Source of the DNA: a virus
Virus genome (UHGV): UHGV-0074586
DNA: 11,801 nt
Strand: one strand, 5' to 3'
The notes below the pieces were generated by a model that was given only the letters and a program-made list of their open reading frames with translations, was not told the origin of the DNA and searched no databases. Every line of letters starts with the position of its first letter. The stretch's first letter is position 1. The position numbers and the translations under genes are program-made. Shown here one piece after another: positions 2,247-10,690 of the stretch.

Positions 2247-3123
2247 GTTAGCTGATTACAGGCATAACCCTGTACAACATCAGGAGGCATCCAGTATGGG
2301 GTATGTCTCTATACACCGCCAGTTTATGGACAGCAGGCTCTATAAGGACTCTCAGGCAGTACATCTTTGGCTTCACTTAATCCTCAAGGCTAATCACGAA
2401 TCTACTGTCGTCAATACGGATATCGGTCCGATAACTGTTGATCGCGGTCAGATGATAACTGGACGCCCGTCGCTGGTCAGAGAAACATTCATCCCCGACA
2501 ACAAAGTTCGGAGCTTATTACGGACTTTTGAGTCGAAAGGGATGCTTAATATTTGCTCGATGGGGAAGAAATTTAGCCTGTTTACAATCGTTAAATATGA
2601 CGATTTTCAGGCAAAAAATTGTCCAACGGTTGTCCAACGGTTGTCCAACGCAAACACCAGTAATGGCGAGGCTCTCAGCGGAGATTGTCCAACGGTTGTC
2701 CAACGGTTGTCCATAAACAATAATATAAATAATATCTCTAATACTGACGTATTAGAGAGTGCCACAGCAGACAAAAAGTCTGACAAGAAAAAACCTTCCG
2801 TTAGCTGTCAGGATGTTGTCGATGCTTACCACGAAATCCTTCCTGAAGCGCCAAGAATCCGCGCACTGAATGACAAGCGTAAAAACCAGATCCGAACGTT
2901 CTGGCGCAAAGCCGGAGTGATAACCCGCCAGCTTGACGGGCATGGGTTCACGATGCAGGACTGGAGAAATTATTTGAGCTACGTAGGCGAAAATTGCCGA
3001 TGGATGTTCGAAGAGCGTCCAAACCATCAACGCGGAACCGTCTGGCACAAAAAGGGATTTGATTTCCTGCTTAACGACAATACCTACCTGAAAGTTCGTG
3101 AGGGTGAACACGATGACCGATAA
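2233..3123 (+). CDS. O-like replication initiation protein (iteron-binding), origin embedded in the gene
   Basis: 296 aa. AGGAG at 2222..2226 precedes ATG 2233. Position after cII, internal iterons and translational coupling to a DnaB-type helicase indicate a lambda O / P22 gp18 analogue. Not sequence-similar to lambda O as far as I can recall. Confidence 0.7.
   Translation: MGVVKLADYRHNPVQHQEASSMGYVSIHRQFMDSRLYKDSQAVHLWLHLILKANHESTVVNTDIGPITVDRGQMITGRPSLVRETFIPDNKVRSLLRTFESKGMLNICSMGKKFSLFTIVKYDDFQAKNCPTVVQRLSNANTSNGEALSGDCPTVVQRLSINNNINNISNTDVLESATADKKSDKKKPSVSCQDVVDAYHEILPEAPRIRALNDKRKNQIRTFWRKAGVITRQLDGHGFTMQDWRNYLSYVGENCRWMFEERPNHQRGTVWHKKGFDFLLNDNTYLKVREGEHDDR
2619..2717. repeat. origin iterons: two clusters of three tandem 11-bp repeats TTGTCCAACGG (2619..2651 and 2685..2717)
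   Basis: Direct repeats with 11-bp periodicity, last copy of each cluster degenerate, clusters separated by about 33 bp, followed by an AT-rich stretch. They fall in the linker of the O-like protein (repeated translation PTVVQRLSN). Confidence 0.8.
2713..2760. promoter_or_regulatory. AT-rich DNA-unwinding-element-like tract flanking the iterons
   Basis: ataaacaataatataaataatatctctaatactgacgtattagagag is almost pure A/T directly 3' of the iterons, the classic lambdoid ori layout. Confidence 0.5.
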
Positions 3124-4549
3124 TTTTTATGCGCCGCCCCATAGCATCGAGGCAGAGCAGGCGGTGATTGGTGGATTGCTTCTGGATGATGACAGCAGTG
3201 AGCGCGTCCAGAAAGTTCTGGCGATGCTGAAGCCTGACTCATTTTACAGCCGGCCACACAAAATCCTTTTCGAAGAAATAACCAGAATGCACCGGGAGCA
3301 AAAGCCAGTAGATGGCCTGACGCTTTTCGATGAGCTGGAGCGTAAATCGTTAACGGCGTCTGTTGGCGGTTTTGCTTATATCGCTGAGATCGCAAAGAAC
3401 ACGCCAAGCGCAGCAAACATCGTTGCCTATGCAATGCAGGTTCGTGAAACCGCAATGGAACGCTACGCCATCAACCGCATGACTGAAGCGACGGAATTGC
3501 TCTATTCCCGCAACGGAATGACTGCAACACAGAAGTACGAAGCTATTCAGTCGATTTTCACGCAACTGACAGACCATGCAAAAACCGGATCGCGTCGCGG
3601 CCTTCGCTCATTTGGTGAGGTCATGGAAGACTGGGTTAGCGACCTTGAGAAGCGATTTGACCCGTCAGGCGAACAACGAGGAATGAGCACAGGGATCCCA
3701 TCGCTGGACAGGATGCTGTCACCGAAAGGTCTGGTGAAAGGCTCTCTGTTTGTCATTGGCGCTCGCCCTAAGATGGGGAAAACGACGCTATACAGCCAGA
3801 TGGCAATCAATTGCGCAGTGCATGAGAAAAAGCCAGCTCTGATGTTCAGCCTTGAAATGCCAGGTGACCAGATACTGGAAAAACTGGTAGGGCAGAAGTC
3901 TGGTGTTAACCCGAATATTTTTTACCTTCCGGCGACAAATGACGCCGATGACGGCTATCAGGGTGATTACGATGGCGACTTCAACAGGGCGATCGAAACA
4001 GCAAATCGCTTGAGTGAAATCGACCTGCTTTACATCGACGACACGCCGGGATTATCTCTGGCTCAAATCGTCAGCGAAAGCCGTCGAATCAAGCGAGAAA
4101 AAGGATGTGTTGGCATGATTCTGGTCGATTACCTGACACTAATGACCGCTGAGAAGGCCGATCGCAACGACCTTGCTTACGGCATGATCACCAAAGGACT
4201 GAAGAACCTTGCCAAAGAGCTTGATTGCGTTGTTGTGCTTCTGACACAGCTTAACCGCGCACTGGAAAGCCGAACCAATAAACGCCCATTACCAAGTGAC
4301 TCACGAGATACAGGGCAGATTGAACAGGATTGCGATTATTGGGTGGGGATCCATCGTGAAGGTGCTTTTGATGACAGCGTTCCTCCTGGTGAAACCGAAC
4401 TAATCCTTCGCCTCAATCGTCATGGCAATACCGGCACGGTGTATTGCATACAGGCAAATGGCGCTATTTATGACACAGACCAACAGTCTGCTGAAATGCG
4501 CCGCCGTGAACGCGAGGAACCGCAGTCCAAGAAGAAAGGAGGGTTCTGA
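3113..4549 (+). CDS. DnaB-family replicative helicase (P22 gp12-type)
   Basis: 478 aa with a DnaB N-terminal signature (HSIEAEQAVIGGLLLD), Walker A GARPKMGKT and a RecA-like C-terminal core. ATG 3113 overlaps the O-like stop (3121..3123); GAGGGTG lies upstream. The ORF-track GTG at 3098 is less likely. Confidence 0.9.
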   Translation: MTDNFYAPPHSIEAEQAVIGGLLLDDDSSERVQKVLAMLKPDSFYSRPHKILFEEITRMHREQKPVDGLTLFDELERKSLTASVGGFAYIAEIAKNTPSAANIVAYAMQVRETAMERYAINRMTEATELLYSRNGMTATQKYEAIQSIFTQLTDHAKTGSRRGLRSFGEVMEDWVSDLEKRFDPSGEQRGMSTGIPSLDRMLSPKGLVKGSLFVIGARPKMGKTTLYSQMAINCAVHEKKPALMFSLEMPGDQILEKLVGQKSGVNPNIFYLPATNDADDGYQGDYDGDFNRAIETANRLSEIDLLYIDDTPGLSLAQIVSESRRIKREKGCVGMILVDYLTLMTAEKADRNDLAYGMITKGLKNLAKELDCVVVLLTQLNRALESRTNKRPLPSDSRDTGQIEQDCDYWVGIHREGAFDDSVPPGETELILRLNRHGNTGTVYCIQANGAIYDTDQQSAEMRRREREEPQSKKKGGF

Positions 4550-4653
4550 TGACCATCTACATCACTGAGCTAATAGCAGGGTTATCGTTACTAATGGTTC
4601 TTACTGTATATATTATTAAGTATATTCTTTATGCGAATAAAAAAACTAATTGA
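4549..4653 (+). CDS. 34-aa hydrophobic single-pass peptide, translationally coupled to the helicase stop
   Basis: ATG 4549 overlaps the helicase TGA (4547..4549) with AGGAGG at 4538..4543. Product MTIYITELIAGLSLLMVLTVYIIKYILYANKKTN. Caveat: AT-rich DNA yields hydrophobic ORFs by chance. Confidence 0.3.
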   Translation: MTIYITELIAGLSLLMVLTVYIIKYILYANKKTN

Positions 4654-5242
4654 TCACGATGAGCTTCTGTCAACATTATCATATGACTCAGAAACAGGAA
4701 TATTTAAATGGCTAAAAACAAATTCAGTAGTAAGAGTAAAAGGTAGTATTGCTGGAGGTGTTAGTGGTGGTTATATATGCATTAGCATAAATAATGTTTT
4801 GTATTATGCGCATAGACTTGCTTGGTTCTATGTATACAAAAAATGGCCTCCTAAGTTTATTGATCATGTAAATGGGAACAGACTTGACAATAGGATTTCA
4901 AATCTAAGACTGGCAACAGAAGAGCAGAATGCAAGAAACATTGTAGGGAATAGGTTAAACACATCCGGTGCGATTGGAGTGTCTTGGTATAAGCCAACTG
5001 GCAGGTGGAAGTCTTATGTTGGTTATAAAAATAAGACAATATCGTTAGGGTATTTCGATAGCAAAGAAGATGCAGCATTCATAGCAGCACTAGCAAGAAA
5101 GAAACTATATGGAACTTATGCGAGTAAAGCACTTAATTGCGAGCATGAGCTTTTATCTCAATTTAATAATGATGAGGATAAACTTGCGGAATATCTTAAG
5201 GAAAAATCTAAAAGGACTCGAAAGCGTGTTAAAAAAAGATAA
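4631..5242 (+). CDS. HNH homing-type endonuclease with C-terminal AP2 DNA-binding domain
   Basis: HNH motif (YYAHRLAWF...IDHVNGNRLDNRISNLRLATEEQNARN) and AP2-like segment (GVSWYKPTGRWKSYVGYKNKTISLGYFDSKEDAAFIAA). The gene sits in a visibly AT-rich island unlike its neighbours. Confidence 0.85.
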   Translation: MRIKKLIDHDELLSTLSYDSETGIFKWLKTNSVVRVKGSIAGGVSGGYICISINNVLYYAHRLAWFYVYKKWPPKFIDHVNGNRLDNRISNLRLATEEQNARNIVGNRLNTSGAIGVSWYKPTGRWKSYVGYKNKTISLGYFDSKEDAAFIAALARKKLYGTYASKALNCEHELLSQFNNDEDKLAEYLKEKSKRTRKRVKKR

Positions 5243-5274
5243 AGGCCTGCTGGTAATCGCAGGCCTTTTTATTT
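5241..5274 (+). terminator. rho-independent terminator after the HNH gene
   Basis: Perfect 8-bp GC-rich stem AGGCCTGC/GCAGGCCT with an 8-nt loop, then TTTTTATTT. An A-run upstream makes it potentially bidirectional. Confidence 0.7.
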
Positions 5275-5290
5275 GGGGGAGAGGGAAGTC

Positions 5291-5731
5291 ATGAAAAAAC
5301 TAACCTTTGAAATTCGATCTCCGGCACATCAGCAAAACGCTATTCACGCAGTACAGCAAATCCTTCCAGACCCAACCAAGCCAATCGTAGTGATCATTCA
5401 GGAGCGCAACCGCAGCTTAGACCAGAATCGGAAGCTTTGGGCTTGCCTTGGTGACGTCTCTCGTCAGGTTGAATGGCATGGTCGCTGGCTGGATGCAGAA
5501 AGCTGGAAGTGCGTTTTTACAGCAGCATTAAAGCAGCAGGATGTTGTTCCTAACCTTGCCGGGAATGGCTTTGTGGTAATAGGCCAGTCAACCAGCAGGA
5601 TGCGTGTAAGCGAATTTGCGGAGCTATTAGAGCTTATACAGGCATTCGGTACAGAGCGTGGCGTTAAGTGGTCAGACGAAGCGCGACTGGCTCTGGAGTG
5701 GAAAGCGAGATGGGGAGACAGGGCGGCATGA
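5291..5731 (+). CDS. ninB: NinB (Orf-family recombination mediator)
   Basis: 146 aa from ATG 5291 ([34 protein letters not shown]...), essentially lambda NinB as I recall it. Confidence 0.9.
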
Positions 5732-6077: not shown

Positions 6078-6792
6078 GTTAATGAATGGCAATGCCATCA
6101 AAATGACAAGCATTGAAATCGCTGAGTTGGTGGGTAAGCGTCATGACAATGTGAAACGTACCATCGAAACGCTGGCTAAAAATGGTGTTATCCGGCTTCC
6201 TCAAATTGAGGTTTCCGAAAGAATCAATAACTTAGGGTTCAATGTTCAGTACGAGCATTACGTCTTCGAGGGCGAACAAGGTAAGCGAGACAGTATTGTC
6301 GTTGTTGCCCAGTTGTCGCCAGAGTTCACCGCTCGCCTTGTTGACCGCTGGCGAGAGCTTGAAGAAACTGCGGTTAATATCCCCAAAACGCTACCAGAAG
6401 CGTTGCGCCTTGCTGCTGATCTTGCTGAGCAGAAAATGCAACTGGAAAACCAGCTCGCAATTGCCGCACCTAAAGTTGAGTTTGCCGATCGCGTTGGCGA
6501 GGCCAGCGGAATTTTGATTGGAAACTTTGCAAAGGTTGTTGGTATTGGTCCAAACAAACTGTTTGCGTGGATGCGCGATCACAAAATCCTTATTGCTTCA
6601 GGTTCCCGGCGCAATGTGCCAATGCAGGAATATATGGATCGCGGCTATTTCACAGTGAAAGAAACAGCGGTCAACACAAATCACGGAATACAGATATCGT
6701 TCACCACAAAAATCACCGGGCGTGGTCAACAGTGGCTGACCAGAAAGTTGCTCGATAACGGAATGCTGAAAGTAACAGGGGAGGCTGCTTAA
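6070..6792 (+). CDS. Rha-family regulatory protein with KilA-C/ANT-type C-terminal domain (antirepressor-like)
   Basis: 240 aa. N-terminal segment (IKMTSIEIAELVGKRHDNVKRTIETL) resembles the Rha domain; C-terminal half (NFAKVVGIGPNKLFAWMRDHKIL...EYMDRGYFTVKE...TTKITGRGQQWL) resembles the antirepressor C-terminal domain. Assigned from memory. Confidence 0.65.
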   Translation: MSELMNGNAIKMTSIEIAELVGKRHDNVKRTIETLAKNGVIRLPQIEVSERINNLGFNVQYEHYVFEGEQGKRDSIVVVAQLSPEFTARLVDRWRELEETAVNIPKTLPEALRLAADLAEQKMQLENQLAIAAPKVEFADRVGEASGILIGNFAKVVGIGPNKLFAWMRDHKILIASGSRRNVPMQEYMDRGYFTVKETAVNTNHGIQISFTTKITGRGQQWLTRKLLDNGMLKVTGEAA

Positions 6793-7082
6793 TGGCTAAC
6801 CTACGCAAAGAAGCACGCGGCAGAGAATGCCAGGTACGTATTTACGGCGTATGCAATGGCAACCCTGAAACTACAGTTCTGGCACATTACCGGATGGCTG
6901 GAATTTGCGGAACGGGAATGAAGCCTGACGACCTGATCGGCGCATGGGCTTGTAGCGCGTGTCACGATGAAATCGACCGACGCACCCATAACCTCGACAA
7001 CAAAGACGCCAGACTTTACCACCTCGAAGGCGTAATCAGGACGCAGGCGATACTGCTGAAGGAGGGGAAGATTAAGCCATGA
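6792..7082 (+). CDS. small Cys/His-rich protein of the kind found upstream of rusA in lambdoid nin regions (DUF1364-like)
   Basis: 96 aa with a C-x8-C...H...C...CxxCH pattern. TAATG overlap with the upstream stop and ATGA overlap with rusA. Family name from memory. Confidence 0.55.
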   Translation: MANLRKEARGRECQVRIYGVCNGNPETTVLAHYRMAGICGTGMKPDDLIGAWACSACHDEIDRRTHNLDNKDARLYHLEGVIRTQAILLKEGKIKP

Positions 7083-7441
7083 ACGAATATCAGTTTGTGC
7101 TTCCATACCCACCGTCGCTGAACACCTACTGGCGAAGACGGGGAAGCCAATACTACATCAGCGATAAAGGCCAGAAATACCGAAAAGACGTTCAGCAAAT
7201 CATCCGCCAACTCAAGTTAGACATTTTCACCAAATCACGACTCCGCATCAAAGTCATCGCAGACGTTCCAGACTCCCGCCGCCGCGACCTCGATAACATC
7301 CTGAAAGGTTTACTCGATTCCCTTATCCACGCCGGATTTGCGGAAGACGACGAGCAATTCGATGACATTCGCGTAATTCGTGGTGTGAAAGTACCAGGCG
7401 GACGGCTTGGAATAAAAATCACCGAACTGGAGAACGCATGA
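7079..7441 (+). CDS. rusA: RusA-family Holliday junction resolvase
   Basis: 120 aa, colinear with E. coli RusA as I recall it, including the RRRDLDN catalytic motif and GGRLGIKITEL C-terminus. Confidence 0.88.
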   Translation: MNEYQFVLPYPPSLNTYWRRRGSQYYISDKGQKYRKDVQQIIRQLKLDIFTKSRLRIKVIADVPDSRRRDLDNILKGLLDSLIHAGFAEDDEQFDDIRVIRGVKVPGGRLGIKITELENA

Positions 7442-8202: not shown

Positions 8203-8277
8203 GGGTCAGTCGTATAAAGGTCATTACTGAAGGCTGTTAACCTTCTTATCGTGGTTCGAGTCCACGCTGTCCCGCCA
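8203..8277 (+). tRNA. tRNA-Asn (anticodon GUU), phage-encoded
   Basis: Hand-folded cloverleaf: 7-bp acceptor stem with one T-T mismatch, perfect anticodon stem GAAGG/CCTTC with loop CTGTTAA, perfect T-arm CGTGG-TTCGAGT-CCACG, encoded CCA. The D-stem has only 3 pairs. Confidence 0.6.
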
Positions 8278-8282
8278 AATAT

Positions 8283-8358
8283 GCTGGTTTAGCTCCAATG
8301 GTAGAGCAGTCGCCTTGTAAGCGAATGGGTAGCGGTTCAAGTCCGTTAACCAGCACCA
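8283..8358 (+). tRNA. tRNA-Thr (anticodon UGU), phage-encoded
   Basis: Hand-folded cloverleaf: perfect acceptor stem GCTGGTT/AACCAGC, D-arm GCTC-CAATGGTA-GAGC, anticodon loop CTTGTAA, T-arm AGCGG-TTCAAGT-CCGTT, discriminator A and CCA. Confidence 0.7.
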
Positions 8359-8519: not shown

Positions 8520-8548
8520 TTGAAAACGAGTTTTGAAACTGCATAATT
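8520..8548 (+). promoter_or_regulatory. sigma70-like promoter (TTGAAA, 16-bp spacer, CATAAT) preceded by phased A-tracts
   Basis: -35 at 8520..8525, -10 at 8542..8547 with a TG just upstream. The preceding 40 bp holds repeated TGCAAAAA/TTGAAAAC A-tracts at roughly helical phasing (8492..8526). Confidence 0.35.
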
Positions 8549-8630
8549 CCTATATGCTCGGACGTCAAAGGCGAAAGAGCTTACCCACCAGCGAAGATGC
8601 CTTGTGCGGAGCGGTGGGAAACACATTCAA

Positions 8631-8658
8631 GCCCTTGCAGAAATGCAGGGGCTTTTTT
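8631..8658 (+). terminator. strong rho-independent terminator in the leader upstream of the insertion operon
   Basis: 9-bp stem GCCCTTGCA/TGCAGGGGC (one G-U pair) with GAAA tetraloop, then TTTTTT. It lies 30 nt upstream of the first operon ATG and inside the ORF-track 5' extension that starts at TTG 8533. Confidence 0.7.
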
Positions 8659-8688
8659 ATTGGCTCAGTGCCACCAGGTGAACACCGT

Positions 8689-9240
8689 ATGCACACGGCG
8701 ATCATTTGCGCTTCCGGACCTTCCCTCACCCACGACGACTGCCAGAAAGCCATTGGCGCTGGATTACCCGTTATTGCGGTGAATTCTTCATGGCGCGCGG
8801 TGCCGGGATGCTCTCACATTTACGCGGGTGATCTGCGCTGGTGGGATGTGAACATTCCCGCGCTGCCCGATGGCCCCGAACGCTGGTCATGTAACCGGAG
8901 AGCACACACCCGATACGGCGTGAGCCTCTTCCCGACAGATACCAGCGGCACATTCAATTCGGGGCAGAGAGCAATCCTGTTCGCTCACTGGCTGGGTGCC
9001 AGTAGCATCATCCTGCTGGGCTTCGATTGCTCAATCTCAAACGGTAGTCACTGGCACGGCGATCACACAGTCCTCGATAACCCGACAGCAGCGAACGTAA
9101 AGCGCTGGCATGGCGAGTTTGCCCGGGTTGCGGCGCAGCTGCGTGGAAGCGTCAATATCATCAACAGCAGCCGCCAGACGGCGCTTAATTGCTTTCGTCG
9201 CTTACCTCTTGAAGCTGCGATCAGCGAGGTTACATGCTGA
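8689..9240 (+). CDS. hypothetical protein with Cst/GT42-like (DUF115/MptE-like) CMP-ulosonate transferase-fold signatures
   Basis: 183 aa from ATG 8689 (AGGTGA 7 nt upstream). IICASGPSL...PVIAVNSSW and FNSGQRAILFAHWLGASSIILLGFDCSISNGSHWHGDH parallel the GNGPSL, RCN, TSG...LGY...LSGIDFY and SHYIGH motifs of Campylobacter Cst-type sialyltransferases as I recall them. Fold-level inference only. Confidence 0.45.
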   Translation: MHTAIICASGPSLTHDDCQKAIGAGLPVIAVNSSWRAVPGCSHIYAGDLRWWDVNIPALPDGPERWSCNRRAHTRYGVSLFPTDTSGTFNSGQRAILFAHWLGASSIILLGFDCSISNGSHWHGDHTVLDNPTAANVKRWHGEFARVAAQLRGSVNIINSSRQTALNCFRRLPLEAAISEVTC

Positions 9241-10175
9241 ATCCTCCGATTTACATCGATGGCATGCTGGGAATGGGAGATACCATTTACCAGCGCGCTT
9301 TCGTCAAACAACTGCCTGCTGGGACATTCATTAAGACGGCATGGCCGGAGCTTTACGAAGATCTGCCGGTGAAAGTTGTCCGAAGTGACACCACGCTCAG
9401 AACGCAGCGTAAAAATGAGTTTCGCAGTTCGGCAAAGTTTTATCCGCCGCCATCGCCACGACAGACGAAGCGAATATTTTACGGACCGTATGATCTGCGG
9501 CGCGGTTCGATATTTGATGCGATGCGACGCCAGTTCGGCGTAACGCCAGCAGCGCTTGATTTGCCATCCTTTGGCCCGTCGCAGTTTACGCACCAAAAGC
9601 CGATCGCCGTTATCCGTCCGGCAACGGTTCGTTCTGAATGGCGTAGCGACTCCCGAAACCCTGACCCCGATTACCTCCTGCGCGCATCGAGAATCCTGCG
9701 GAAACATTTCTGCGTGATTAGCGTTGCTGATTTGCAGGACGGGGAAGAGTGGCTGGTGGGCGAAGAACCAGAGGCGGATCTGAAAATGCACGCTGGCGAG
9801 CTCAATATCAAAGAGCTGATGCGCCTGGTTGAGCATGCCGCTGTCGTGGTTACGCCTGTTGGCTGGGCGCTGCCCGCTGCCATTGCGTACAAAACACCTG
9901 TTTACGTTGTCGCTGGTGGGCGCGGTGGGCATAACGCTCCCGAGATAGTCACCGATCCGGCGATGGATTTATCCCGCGTTGGCTGGGCAATCCCGGACAA
10001 TTATTGTCGCTGCGAAGCGTGGGATCACCATTGCGACAAACGCATCTTCAACTTTGATTCAAAATTCGAGACATGGCTGAATGAAGTCGTTTTATCAGGA
10101 ACTGAACAGCGGGCTGGTATTCCTCCCGGAGCTGGGCATCGGTCGTTATCCGGTTCCGGCATCACGCCCGTATGA
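9234..10175 (+). CDS. hypothetical protein with glycosyltransferase family 9 (ADP-heptose:LPS heptosyltransferase)-like fold; 3' boundary uncertain
   Basis: ATG overlaps the upstream stop (ATGCTGA). N-terminal IYIDGMLGMGDTIYQRAFVKQL and C-terminal ELNIKELMRLVEHAAVVVTPVGWALPAAIAYKTPVYVVAGG follow the GT9 pattern, but the canonical DTGPMHLAAA motif is replaced by TPVGWALPAAIA. The ORF runs 95 nt into the next gene. Confidence 0.45.
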   Translation: MLNPPIYIDGMLGMGDTIYQRAFVKQLPAGTFIKTAWPELYEDLPVKVVRSDTTLRTQRKNEFRSSAKFYPPPSPRQTKRIFYGPYDLRRGSIFDAMRRQFGVTPAALDLPSFGPSQFTHQKPIAVIRPATVRSEWRSDSRNPDPDYLLRASRILRKHFCVISVADLQDGEEWLVGEEPEADLKMHAGELNIKELMRLVEHAAVVVTPVGWALPAAIAYKTPVYVVAGGRGGHNAPEIVTDPAMDLSRVGWAIPDNYCRCEAWDHHCDKRIFNFDSKFETWLNEVVLSGTEQRAGIPPGAGHRSLSGSGITPV

Positions 10176-10690
10176 CGAGCAGTATTTCGCGAAGTATCAG
10201 CAGCTTGCCGACACCGAAACGGGCAGAGCCTTAACGCAATCCCGTATTGAGCTGGTGGCGCGCCATTTTCACGGTCCTGTTCTCGACGTTGGTATCGGTG
10301 CCGGTCAGTTCGTCTCTACCCGACCGGGAACGCTTGGGTATGACGTTAATCCGGCTGGTATCGCCTGGCTGAACGAGCGGGGCGCATTCGCTGACCTCTA
10401 GTCAGGGGCGCGCGCTGACGATGTGGGATGTCCTGGAGCACATCGACGAGCCGGAGCTGGCGGTACAGCAGGCTACAGAGTTTGTTTTCGTGTCGATCCC
10501 CATTTTTACCGATGCCGGAGACATTCTTCGCTCGCACCATTTCAGGAAGAACGAGCACATCTGGTATTTCACTGACGACGGTATTAAGCGCTGGTTTGCA
10601 GAGCAGGGCTTCGAATGCGCTGAACAGAACACAATCGAATGCCAGTTAGGGCGTAAGGGCGTCGCTTCGTACGCTTTCCGCCGCGTTTAG
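10081..10690 (+). pseudogene. class I SAM-dependent methyltransferase split by a frameshift near 10395..10402
   Basis: ORF 10081..10401 carries motif I (VLDVGIGAGQF) and an acidic beta-2 end (GYDVNP). ORF 10421..10690 in another frame carries the DVLEH motif. The frame upstream of 10421 reads ...SSQGRALTMWDVLEH, so one indel just before the TAG at 10399..10401 would restore a single protein of about 200 aa. Confidence 0.6.

Follow-up and report, generated by a model that had tools for sequence, protein, structure and literature searches.

An HNH-AP2 nuclease gene inserted in ninA at the foot of the tR2 terminator of lambdoid phages: a candidate homing cassette

Results

The window, that is, the whole stretch of 11,801 nucleotides of the virus genome UHGV-0074586 that was analysed here, is the immunity-to-lysis segment (11.8 kb) of a lambdoid phage or prophage. 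Between the replicative helicase gene and ninB it carries an AT-rich cassette that splits the small gene ninA while sparing the intrinsic terminator tR2, and that contains a 50-nt leader and a 612-nt open reading frame (ORF) for an HNH-AP2 endonuclease, nothing more. Its boundaries were determined against the empty sites of HK542, lambda-type phages, Sf6 and P22. In the comparison with HK542, the left homology ends at 4580 and the right homology begins at 5243, and since three nucleotides, AGG, are common to both junctions, the insert can also be written as 4578-5242, in which case it ends exactly at the HNH stop codon. At the empty site of HK542 (L002 1647-1732) the helicase stop is followed by ATGACCATCTACATCACTGAGCTAATAACAGG and, across the point of insertion, by CCTGCTGGTAATCGCAGGCCTTTTTATTTGGGGGAGAGGGAAGTCATGA; the close relatives mEp234, HK106 and many others likewise lack the island. 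An earlier sequence-only reading of this DNA had asked whether the AT-rich stretch is an insertion with an empty counterpart in related prophages, and alignment indeed retrieves many such counterparts, with exact junctions.

The GC content of the 665-bp insert contrasts with 0.499 and 0.502 in the adjoining 665 bp on either side, and the lowest value among the other 665-bp windows of the 11.8 kb is 0.409 (mean 0.496, sd 0.04). At third codon positions it is 0.25 in the HNH ORF, against 0.54 in the helicase gene and 0.49 in ninB. The drop in base composition that had caught the attention of the sequence-only reading is therefore real, but it extends over 4581-5245 (or 4578-5242) rather than over 4549-5274. 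No promoter-like site was found on the + strand of the cassette, a repeats scan at 4581 and 5245 revealed no terminal inverted or direct repeats, and an Rfam scan of the window returned no known RNA element in the island, the only hits being two tRNAs elsewhere. An origin from a transposon or insertion sequence (IS) was rejected, as there are no terminal repeats, the junctions share only the 3-nt AGG microhomology and the HNH gene is the sole ORF. The cassette was also rejected as a moron, as it has no promoter and the terminator is the resident tR2 that is present at empty sites.

The cassette occurs in 19 phage records (HK022 at 99.6% identity; PA28, 1717, WGPS4/6, SH2026Stx1 and other Stx phages at about 99%) and at 138 places in 126 of the 5426 complete Escherichia coli genomes, all at ≥98.6% identity, the gene thus being present in about 2% of complete E. 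coli genomes. The empty site is found in at least 308 phage records and, within E. coli, there are about 2999 ninA/tR2 places in 2053 genomes, such that roughly one site in 20 is occupied and about 95% are empty. An IMG/VR search with an island-internal 35-mer, which does not depend on the flanks, gave 36 copies when combined with the collected loci. Wherever a flank can be read among these 36, the ninA 5' arm precedes the cassette and tR2 follows it. Upstream of the copies, six unrelated gene ends are found (HK022-type P, HK97-type helicase, a primase/helicase, lambda Ren and two others), and at least seven different contexts follow downstream; the flank common to the copies extends on the left from the ninA ATG (32 nt) and on the right to about 45 nt past the junction. 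Even diverged ninA/tR2 alleles (L138 and L140) carry the cassette at the unchanged junction. The cassette is thus either present or absent at one fixed site, and its junctions are the same in all copies. As judged from these alignments, an intact nuclease gene of the HNH-AP2 type, under selection, is shown to have been inserted site-specifically and with no other gene, at a highly conserved sequence, in many unrelated backgrounds. The idea that the island sits where lambda carries P/ren had to be abandoned, because lambda-type phages have the same site, empty or filled, downstream of ren, and in phage PA28 the cassette follows an intact ren instead of replacing it.

One flanking base distinguishes filled from empty sites. 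Position 4576 is G in 34 of 34 readable filled sites, but in only two of 119 sampled empty ones, the other 117 having A. Since the cassette has a single recent origin, this G reflects linkage by descent and is not independent evidence, although its presence in all filled sites implies that every transfer took at least these flanking bases. A base that travels with every copy is what co-conversion could leave behind; linkage by descent explains it equally well. Two empty ninA sites among the loci L012-L131 (sequence GCAGGCCTGCTGGTAATCGCAGGCATTTTT) have the filled-type G at -4, and in both of them the 3' arm of the tR2 stem has A in place of C. These sites could represent the target in its ancestral form, or they could have lost a cassette precisely.

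The encoded protein matches the Pfam family HNH_3 (PF13392) with 57.8 bits (cut-off 24.8), the AP2 family with 28.7 bits, which is under the cut-off of 33.3, and PHROG 99, 'HNH endonuclease', with an E-value of 6e-72, in support of the sequence-only reading that had seen in it a free-standing HNH-AP2 endonuclease of the homing type. The AP2 domain follows the HNH module on its C-terminal side, as in the HNH-AP2 class. A confident AlphaFold2 model (pLDDT 89.8) has a beta-beta-alpha-metal fold and an N-terminal sheet for DNA binding, both as in I-HmuI. Eleven residues (H61, R62, L63, A64, W65, D78, H79, N87, N91, R93 and N103) are invariant in a 41-member alignment, and by their pattern they are the signature of an HNH_3 active site. 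Judged by sequence and predicted fold, the protein passes the testable criteria both of HNH_3/I-HmuI-type nucleases and of free-standing HNH-AP2 homing-endonuclease genes (HEGs). As a component of a defence system it was rejected, PADLOC giving only a weak, generic match to 'homing endonuclease'.

Homologues are numerous (1607 at E <1e-5, mostly HNH_3 plus AP2), but there is a gap in identity between the E. coli cluster (≥98%) and all other members (≤50%), except for one relative at 62%. This sole relative in the range of 50-98% (P0004) was rejected as an independent lineage because it is a chimera, the one described below. A scan of one genome per species for close homologues found them only in E. 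coli, along with two AP2-only matches in Firmicutes. Among 28 intact ORFs representing 10 alleles there are nine synonymous and eight non-synonymous codon changes, which, over 131 synonymous and 478 non-synonymous sites, gives a ratio of non-synonymous to synonymous polymorphism (pN/pS) of about 0.24 (Fisher p 0.004). Half of the replacements fall in the C-terminal tail, while synonymous changes prevail in the HNH core. Such a pattern of codon changes indicates that the HNH protein is maintained and under purifying selection.

Table 1. Positions in the window of the cassette, its target and the two adjoining genes
Feature	Position	Strand	Basis or remark
DnaB-type replicative helicase (HK022/P22 gp12-type P)	3098-4549	+	Pfam DnaB_C, DnaB; 97.5% identity to HK022 gene P
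AGGAGG Shine-Dalgarno of ninA, within 3' end of helicase gene	4537-4542	+	sequence; belongs to the target
Left homology arm, 5' 32 nt of ninA, conserved in empty sites	4549-4580	+	homology with HK542
Chimeric ninA' ORF, 34 aa, MTIYITELIAGLSLLMVLTVYIIKYILYANKKTN	4549-4653	+	codons 1-11 target, 12-34 island
G/A polymorphism, NinA T10A, 4 nt left of junction	4576	+	
Inserted cassette, 665 bp, GC 0.338	4581-5245	+	junction computation against HK542, composition, repeats scan
AT-rich 50-nt leader	4581-4630	+	no Shine-Dalgarno, no + strand promoter-like site
HNH-AP2 endonuclease gene, 203 aa	4631-5242	+	stop TAA 5240-5242 abuts tR2 stem
A7 homopolymer in ninA'/HNH overlap, slippage-prone	4639-4645	+	
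HNH_3 (beta-beta-alpha-metal) catalytic module, residues 58-102	4802-4936	+	Pfam, family alignment
AP2 DNA-binding domain (predicted), residues 114-161, three strands and a helix	4970-5113	+	
Lineage-specific helical, basic C-terminal tail, about 35 residues (168-203)	5132-5239	+	absent from relatives
Lambda-type tR2 intrinsic terminator	5241-5274	+	stem 5241-5268, T-tract to 5274
Right homology arm, tR2 hairpin plus TTTGGGGGAGAGGGAAGT	5243-5290	+	3' ninA remnant, out of frame
ninB/orf recombination mediator, first gene past site	5291-5731	+	Pfam NinB E 7e-54

The target of the insertion is best described from the empty sites (Table 1 gives the positions in the window). There, ninA is an intact ORF of 26 codons that runs through the tR2 hairpin and whose TGA overlaps the ATG of ninB. 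It is annotated in P22, phage 21, HK620 and Sf6, and in the Sf6 record the entire 81 nt are labelled 'bsq6; boundary sequence'. The last replication gene, ninA and ninB form, at empty sites, a chain of overlapping stop and start codons that is very likely translated through the tR2 hairpin, which is why ninA translation could modulate termination at tR2. The cassette breaks this chain (window 4547-4551 and 5291-5294), and the HNH stop codon now lies against the stem. In the window, the ninA ATG shares its A with the helicase TGA (TGATG) and is preceded by AGGAGG at a distance of 6 nt, and the same 32-nt ninA start is found after Ren, the HK97-type helicase and other genes. At each of the six unrelated gene ends upstream, a GGAG-type Shine-Dalgarno (SD) sequence stands 6-8 nt before the ninA ATG, and each of these genes has a stop codon that overlaps or directly abuts this ATG. 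Because six unrelated genes each provide both signals, it is very likely, on this comparative evidence, that ninA itself is translated.

Insertion of the cassette converts ninA into a chimeric ORF, ninA', to which the target contributes the first 10-11 codons and the island the last 22-23. Whereas an intact NinA is a hydrophobic ORF of 26-32 aa that ends on the ninB start, NinA' leaves the ninA sequence beyond codon 11 and terminates at 4653, which is 20 nt downstream of the HNH ATG, thereby overlapping the start of the HNH gene by 23 nt in a different frame. The match to PHROG 5907 covers residues 1-12 of NinA' only, and NCBIfam has no model for NinA, NinA' or the HNH protein. The sequence-only reading had regarded the 34-aa ORF as a hydrophobic peptide gene of the island, coupled to the helicase stop. 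The AGGAGG, the coupling geometry and the overlap with the HNH start are all present as it described them, but the start, the SD and the stop/start overlap belong to the pre-existing 26-codon ninA, and since all three are conserved in empty sites, the ORF is the interrupted ninA rather than an island gene. The first 12 island-encoded residues of NinA' (LSLLMVLTVYII) are strongly hydrophobic: their mean Kyte-Doolittle value is 2.64, and 0.56% of the 36-nt windows of the island (any frame, either strand) attain it, as do 0.075% of composition-matched random sequences that are also open for at least 17 codons. This post hoc test provides a lead only. In the standard, HK97 and filled alleles alike, the end of NinA is a hydrophobic stretch with charged or polar residues after it, and for this reason the cassette may supply a working replacement for the NinA C-terminus.

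On the right side, the ninA remnant retains the TGA (5292-5294) that overlaps the ninB ATG. A terminator does stand at the end of the AT-rich stretch as the sequence-only reading had it, yet it is not borne by the island, being the resident tR2 that is identical at empty sites and annotated in Sf6, P22, HK620 and Nil2. Its stem comprises 10 bp at the filled site, against 8 bp at the empty one, because the last two bases of the HNH stop codon contribute two A-U pairs. HK97 has yet another arrangement (L010 2501-2599), in which the ninA 5' arm reaches up to ACAGG and is then followed by a wholly different terminator hairpin (GGGGCTATTTACACAGTAGCCCC), its NinA still having a hydrophobic end despite the different hairpin. 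Since this hairpin departs from the same point, the foot of tR2 is a recurrent mosaic breakpoint even without the cassette.

The HNH ATG is preceded by TATTATTAAGTATATTCTTT and is the sole start among the listed genes of the operon that lacks a purine-rich SD, which bears out the sequence-only reading that no ribosome-binding site is evident at 4631. The predicted accessibility of the mRNA at this start (0.48) is no different from that at other starts, so structure neither explains nor replaces the missing SD.

Several copies have been damaged or rearranged. ISEc8 is inserted at the window equivalent of 4580-4587, with an 8-bp duplication (GGTTATCG), in phage 1717 (L004/L133) and in an IMG/VR contig (L157), and IS100 accompanies a split HNH gene in a prophage of E. 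coli L3_CS7_E2980 (L134). The ISEc8 and IS100 insertions are independent of each other and lie at the 5' end of the cassette, which is AT-rich. In another IMG/VR copy (L141) the A7 run has become A8, which shifts the frame of the HNH gene at codon 4. A lambdoid contig (L132 3919-4516) holds a chimeric HNH gene whose first 279 nt are essentially those of the cassette, with three single-nucleotide polymorphisms that are common to the PA28/WGPS6 alleles, and which continues, directly from the end of the AHRLAWF codons, as a different HNH-AP2 gene with a higher GC content. The chimera abuts rusA, tR2 and the ninB-to-roi genes being deleted, and no DNA sequence of the phage collection matches its 3' half. 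The structure of this gene is evidence for recombination between paralogous nuclease genes.

The neighbourhood is that of a mosaic lambdoid genome. Its left part encodes, in this order, a cI-type repressor (Peptidase_S24), cII, O and the DnaB-type helicase P, followed by the cassette, and its right part ninB, ninE/F, roi (Rha/ANT), YbcO, RusA, NinH and Q. After Q come two tRNAs, a GC-rich cargo block, holin and endolysin. From the helicase to ninB the window is 97.5% identical to HK022, but no single sequenced phage covers more than 65% of the window, which is thus a separate mosaic. Between tR2 and ninB, HK022 (L001 2889-3689) carries three additional small genes, HK022_58 to HK022_60; as the window lacks them, the right arm is also a mosaic joint. 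The operon encodes two further nucleases, YbcO (6792-7082) and RusA (7079-7441), and the RefSeq label 'HNH endonuclease' on the YbcO homologue of HK97 is without support from the Pfam result. The tRNA genes, Asn(GTT) and Thr(TGT), at 8203-8358 are located just 3' of Q, an arrangement as in Stx-type phages. Between Q and the holin gene, a block at 8533-10690 with a GC content of 0.56-0.61 contains a sialyltransferase-like ORF (phrog_4603), an ORF of no known function (phrog_6804) and a methyltransferase (phrog_6564) that is split between the ORFs 10081-10401 and 10421-10690. With its broken methyltransferase, the block has the look of cargo of the late operon.

Discussion

Why an intact nuclease gene should be found at one and the same position in so many different lambdoid genomes is the question raised by these comparisons. 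We lean towards the view that the cassette is a free-standing homing-endonuclease gene that targets the ninA/tR2 boundary sequence. In such a scenario, the enzyme would nick or cut the uninterrupted ninA/tR2 of another lambdoid genome, whether co-infecting or resident. Enzymes of the I-HmuI type nick one specific strand, and by analogy with I-HmuI the HNH enzyme may also be a strand-specific nickase. The AP2 domain would bind the GC-rich tR2 hairpin or the G-run: no elements next to the insertion point are GC-rich except the tR2 stem and the GGGGGAGAGGG run, and a preference of AP2 domains for GC-rich targets is reported in PMC10448857, which cites Magnani 2004. The break would then be repaired from the cassette-bearing genome by phage recombination functions, either via the short conserved arms or via longer flanks where these are homologous. 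The cassette would thereby be copied in and the recognition site split. Red-type recombinases work with homologies of 30-50 nt.

Several observations weigh against this scenario. The AP2 match lies below its threshold, and we infer the ninA/tR2 target solely from the position of the insertion and the translational coupling of the HNH gene to ninA' only from the geometry of the two frames. Free-standing phage HEGs often cut away from their own insertion point, and the real target could thus be located elsewhere nearby. Only about 5% of the sites are occupied, and a genome that harbours several lambdoid prophages usually contains one copy. Moreover, ninA/tR2 is a known mosaic boundary sequence (bsq6) at which modules recombine without the cassette, and the variety of contexts could therefore be the outcome of ordinary recombination. 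It is possible, though distinctly less probable than homing, that the gene is passive cargo that entered ninA once by illegitimate recombination at the AGG microhomology and was then spread by ordinary homologous exchange, the nuclease aiding its carrier in some other manner, for example by cutting the DNA of a competing phage or of the host (marker exclusion, superinfection competition). The annotation of the site as a boundary sequence is in keeping with such a history, as are the same shuffling of upstream and downstream modules at empty sites, the different hairpin of HK97 from the same breakpoint, the sharing of the cassette and one flank between the window and the locus L084, as single crossovers would give, the purifying selection (pN/pS 0.24), which fits a function useful to the phage, and the low occupancy. 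However, PA28 and WGPS6 differ on both flanks while their cassettes are more than 99% identical, so that exchanges are needed within both the 32-nt and the 45-nt arm. The unchanged junction in the diverged ninA/tR2 alleles of L138 and L140 and an architecture and gene-only content that match classical free-standing HEGs also argue against mere cargo, and no data point to another target. Sequence data cannot separate active homing from passive cargo.

Two other roles for the protein appear much less plausible. It could be a domesticated regulator in which the AP2 domain, with or without the basic tail, binds a specific site and represses or modulates transcription, or perhaps modulates tR2 termination, nuclease activity having been lost or become irrelevant. 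Phage AP2 proteins can be transcriptional silencers (bioRxiv 10.64898/2026.02.23.707548), the basic C-terminal tail is specific to this lineage, and the HNH stop codon abuts the tR2 stem. We consider this improbable, since the catalytic and structural residues of the HNH module are all kept, with synonymous changes prevailing in the HNH core, since the silencers in question (CasPRs) consist of CapR and AP2 without HNH whereas neither CapR nor another regulator domain was found here, and since the PADLOC match is a weak and generic one to 'homing endonuclease'. A packaging protein that assists terminase, like gp74 of HK97, might also come to mind, as cos phages of the HK022/HK97 type need an HNH protein for packaging. 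Yet, the Pfam family differs (HNH_3 plus AP2 rather than gp74-type HNH), the gene resides in the early-right operon and not by terminase, and it is present in phages with unrelated virion modules, such as Stx phages, but absent from HK542, mEp234 and HK106, close relatives that have the same types of module. This pattern of presence and absence effectively refutes a packaging role, and we give it next to no credence.

How the HNH gene would be expressed from a start without an SD bears on any of these functions. The gene is probably transcribed from pR along with the replication genes, upstream of tR2, and if so, the protein would be made only in lytic growth and be silent in lysogens. Its ATG would be reached by reinitiation of ribosomes that finish ninA' 20 nt downstream of the SD-less ATG, the translation of ninA' itself being coupled to the helicase gene. 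Alternatively, the nuclease could be made as a NinA'-HNH fusion by a +1 shift on the A7 run, in which case the product would be a membrane-tethered or N-terminally extended nuclease. Indeed, the HNH ATG has no SD, the A7 run falls precisely where ninA' and the HNH gene overlap, the latter being in the +1 frame with respect to the former, and the tract does slip at the DNA level, as seen in the A8 allele of L141. Nevertheless, a fusion product seems very improbable, because relatives start within a few residues of the same ATG without such an upstream ORF, A7 is short for efficient slippage, no stimulatory structure is present in the AT-rich stretch (minimum free energy -16.6 kcal/mol for 120 nt), and termination-reinitiation 20 nt away offers a simpler route.

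A more far-reaching version of the homing scenario, which is attractive but doubtful, is that the cassette is a 'minimal-harm' homing element. Its target would be a regulatory boundary and not a protein gene, namely the ninA/tR2 junction, which in hundreds of lambdoid phages lies between the replication module and the nin module. By cutting there it would act as a direct source of the double-strand breaks behind a hotspot of modular exchange, and it would repair what it interrupts: its stop-codon end would rebuild tR2 with a longer stem and the cassette would provide a surrogate hydrophobic C-terminus for NinA, while the translation of the chimeric NinA' would be used to express its own SD-less gene.

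The gene and the kind of element to which it belongs are already known, and nothing categorically new is at hand: HK022, 1717, PA28 and RefSeq genomes carry the annotations 'putative endonuclease', 'HNH endonuclease' or 'homing endonuclease'. A full-text search of the literature found no paper on the interruption of ninA, although the original description of the HK022/HK97 genomes may hold one. What the present analysis adds is a precise anatomy, with ninA interrupted at the foot of tR2 between conserved arms of 32 nt and 45 nt. An annotation that was vague thereby becomes a homing system open to direct test in the phage family that is understood best, for which HK022 is available as donor and HK542, lambda or HK97 as recipients. 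Should the enzyme cut the boundary sequence, a specific nuclease would be tied to a classic mosaic joint of lambdoid genomes. In addition, the six independent SD-bearing upstream contexts constitute the first reasonable argument that the 26-codon ninA is translated.

Comparison with known systems delimits the cassette from several of its apparent counterparts. With the NinA of P22, phage 21, HK620 and Sf6 (gp45), NinA' has in common the start, the SD, the overlap and the first nine residues, residue 10 being T or A. The last 15 residues of NinA are replaced by 23 that the island encodes, and the whole tR2 hairpin and the ninB junction are retained, but the overlap of the ninA stop with the ninB start is cut off from ninA translation. 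The morons of lambdoid phages (Juhala/Hendrix) are likewise compositionally deviant extra genes between two conserved genes, yet a moron has its own promoter and terminator, whereas the cassette has no promoter and ends at the pre-existing tR2. AP2 silencers of the CasPR type combine a CapR zinc domain with AP2 and have no nuclease, while the cassette protein has HNH and no CapR. Packaging HNH proteins of the HK97 gp74 type are encoded beside terminase and required by the phages with that module, neither of which applies to the cassette gene.

Among nucleases, the HNH_3-type enzymes I-HmuI (PDB 1u3e), I-HmuII, I-BasI and I-TwoI are intron-encoded and end in helical or helix-turn-helix DNA-binding modules. 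The cassette enzyme is instead free-standing and ends in AP2 and a basic tail, its sequence similarity to I-HmuI is marginal (E 0.35), and nicking is assumed by analogy only. The seg and mob HEGs of T4 share with the cassette the gene-only content, the location between or inside conserved genes, the presence/absence polymorphism among related phages, the expression from transcripts of the host phage and the AT-richness. They belong to the GIY-YIG and other HNH types, and their homing and marker exclusion have been shown by experiment, whereas the cassette is known from sequence. HNH-AP2 homing endonucleases were reportedly described by Magnani and colleagues in 2004. They are a recognised class of HEG, including the IPA-HNH enzymes of ICP1 and other phages (Barth et al. 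2023, PMC10448857), which have the same order of an N-terminal HNH and a C-terminal AP2 domain. Like the IPA-HNH HEGs, the cassette gene is free-standing and located at a boundary of genetic exchange by essential replication genes. The ICP1 enzymes are too divergent for the Pfam HNH_3 profile (PMC10448857), which the cassette protein matches strongly. The cassette further differs from the ICP1 HEGs in its temperate, lambdoid host and in its site of insertion, a very small ORF with a terminator instead of a large essential gene or the immediate vicinity of one.

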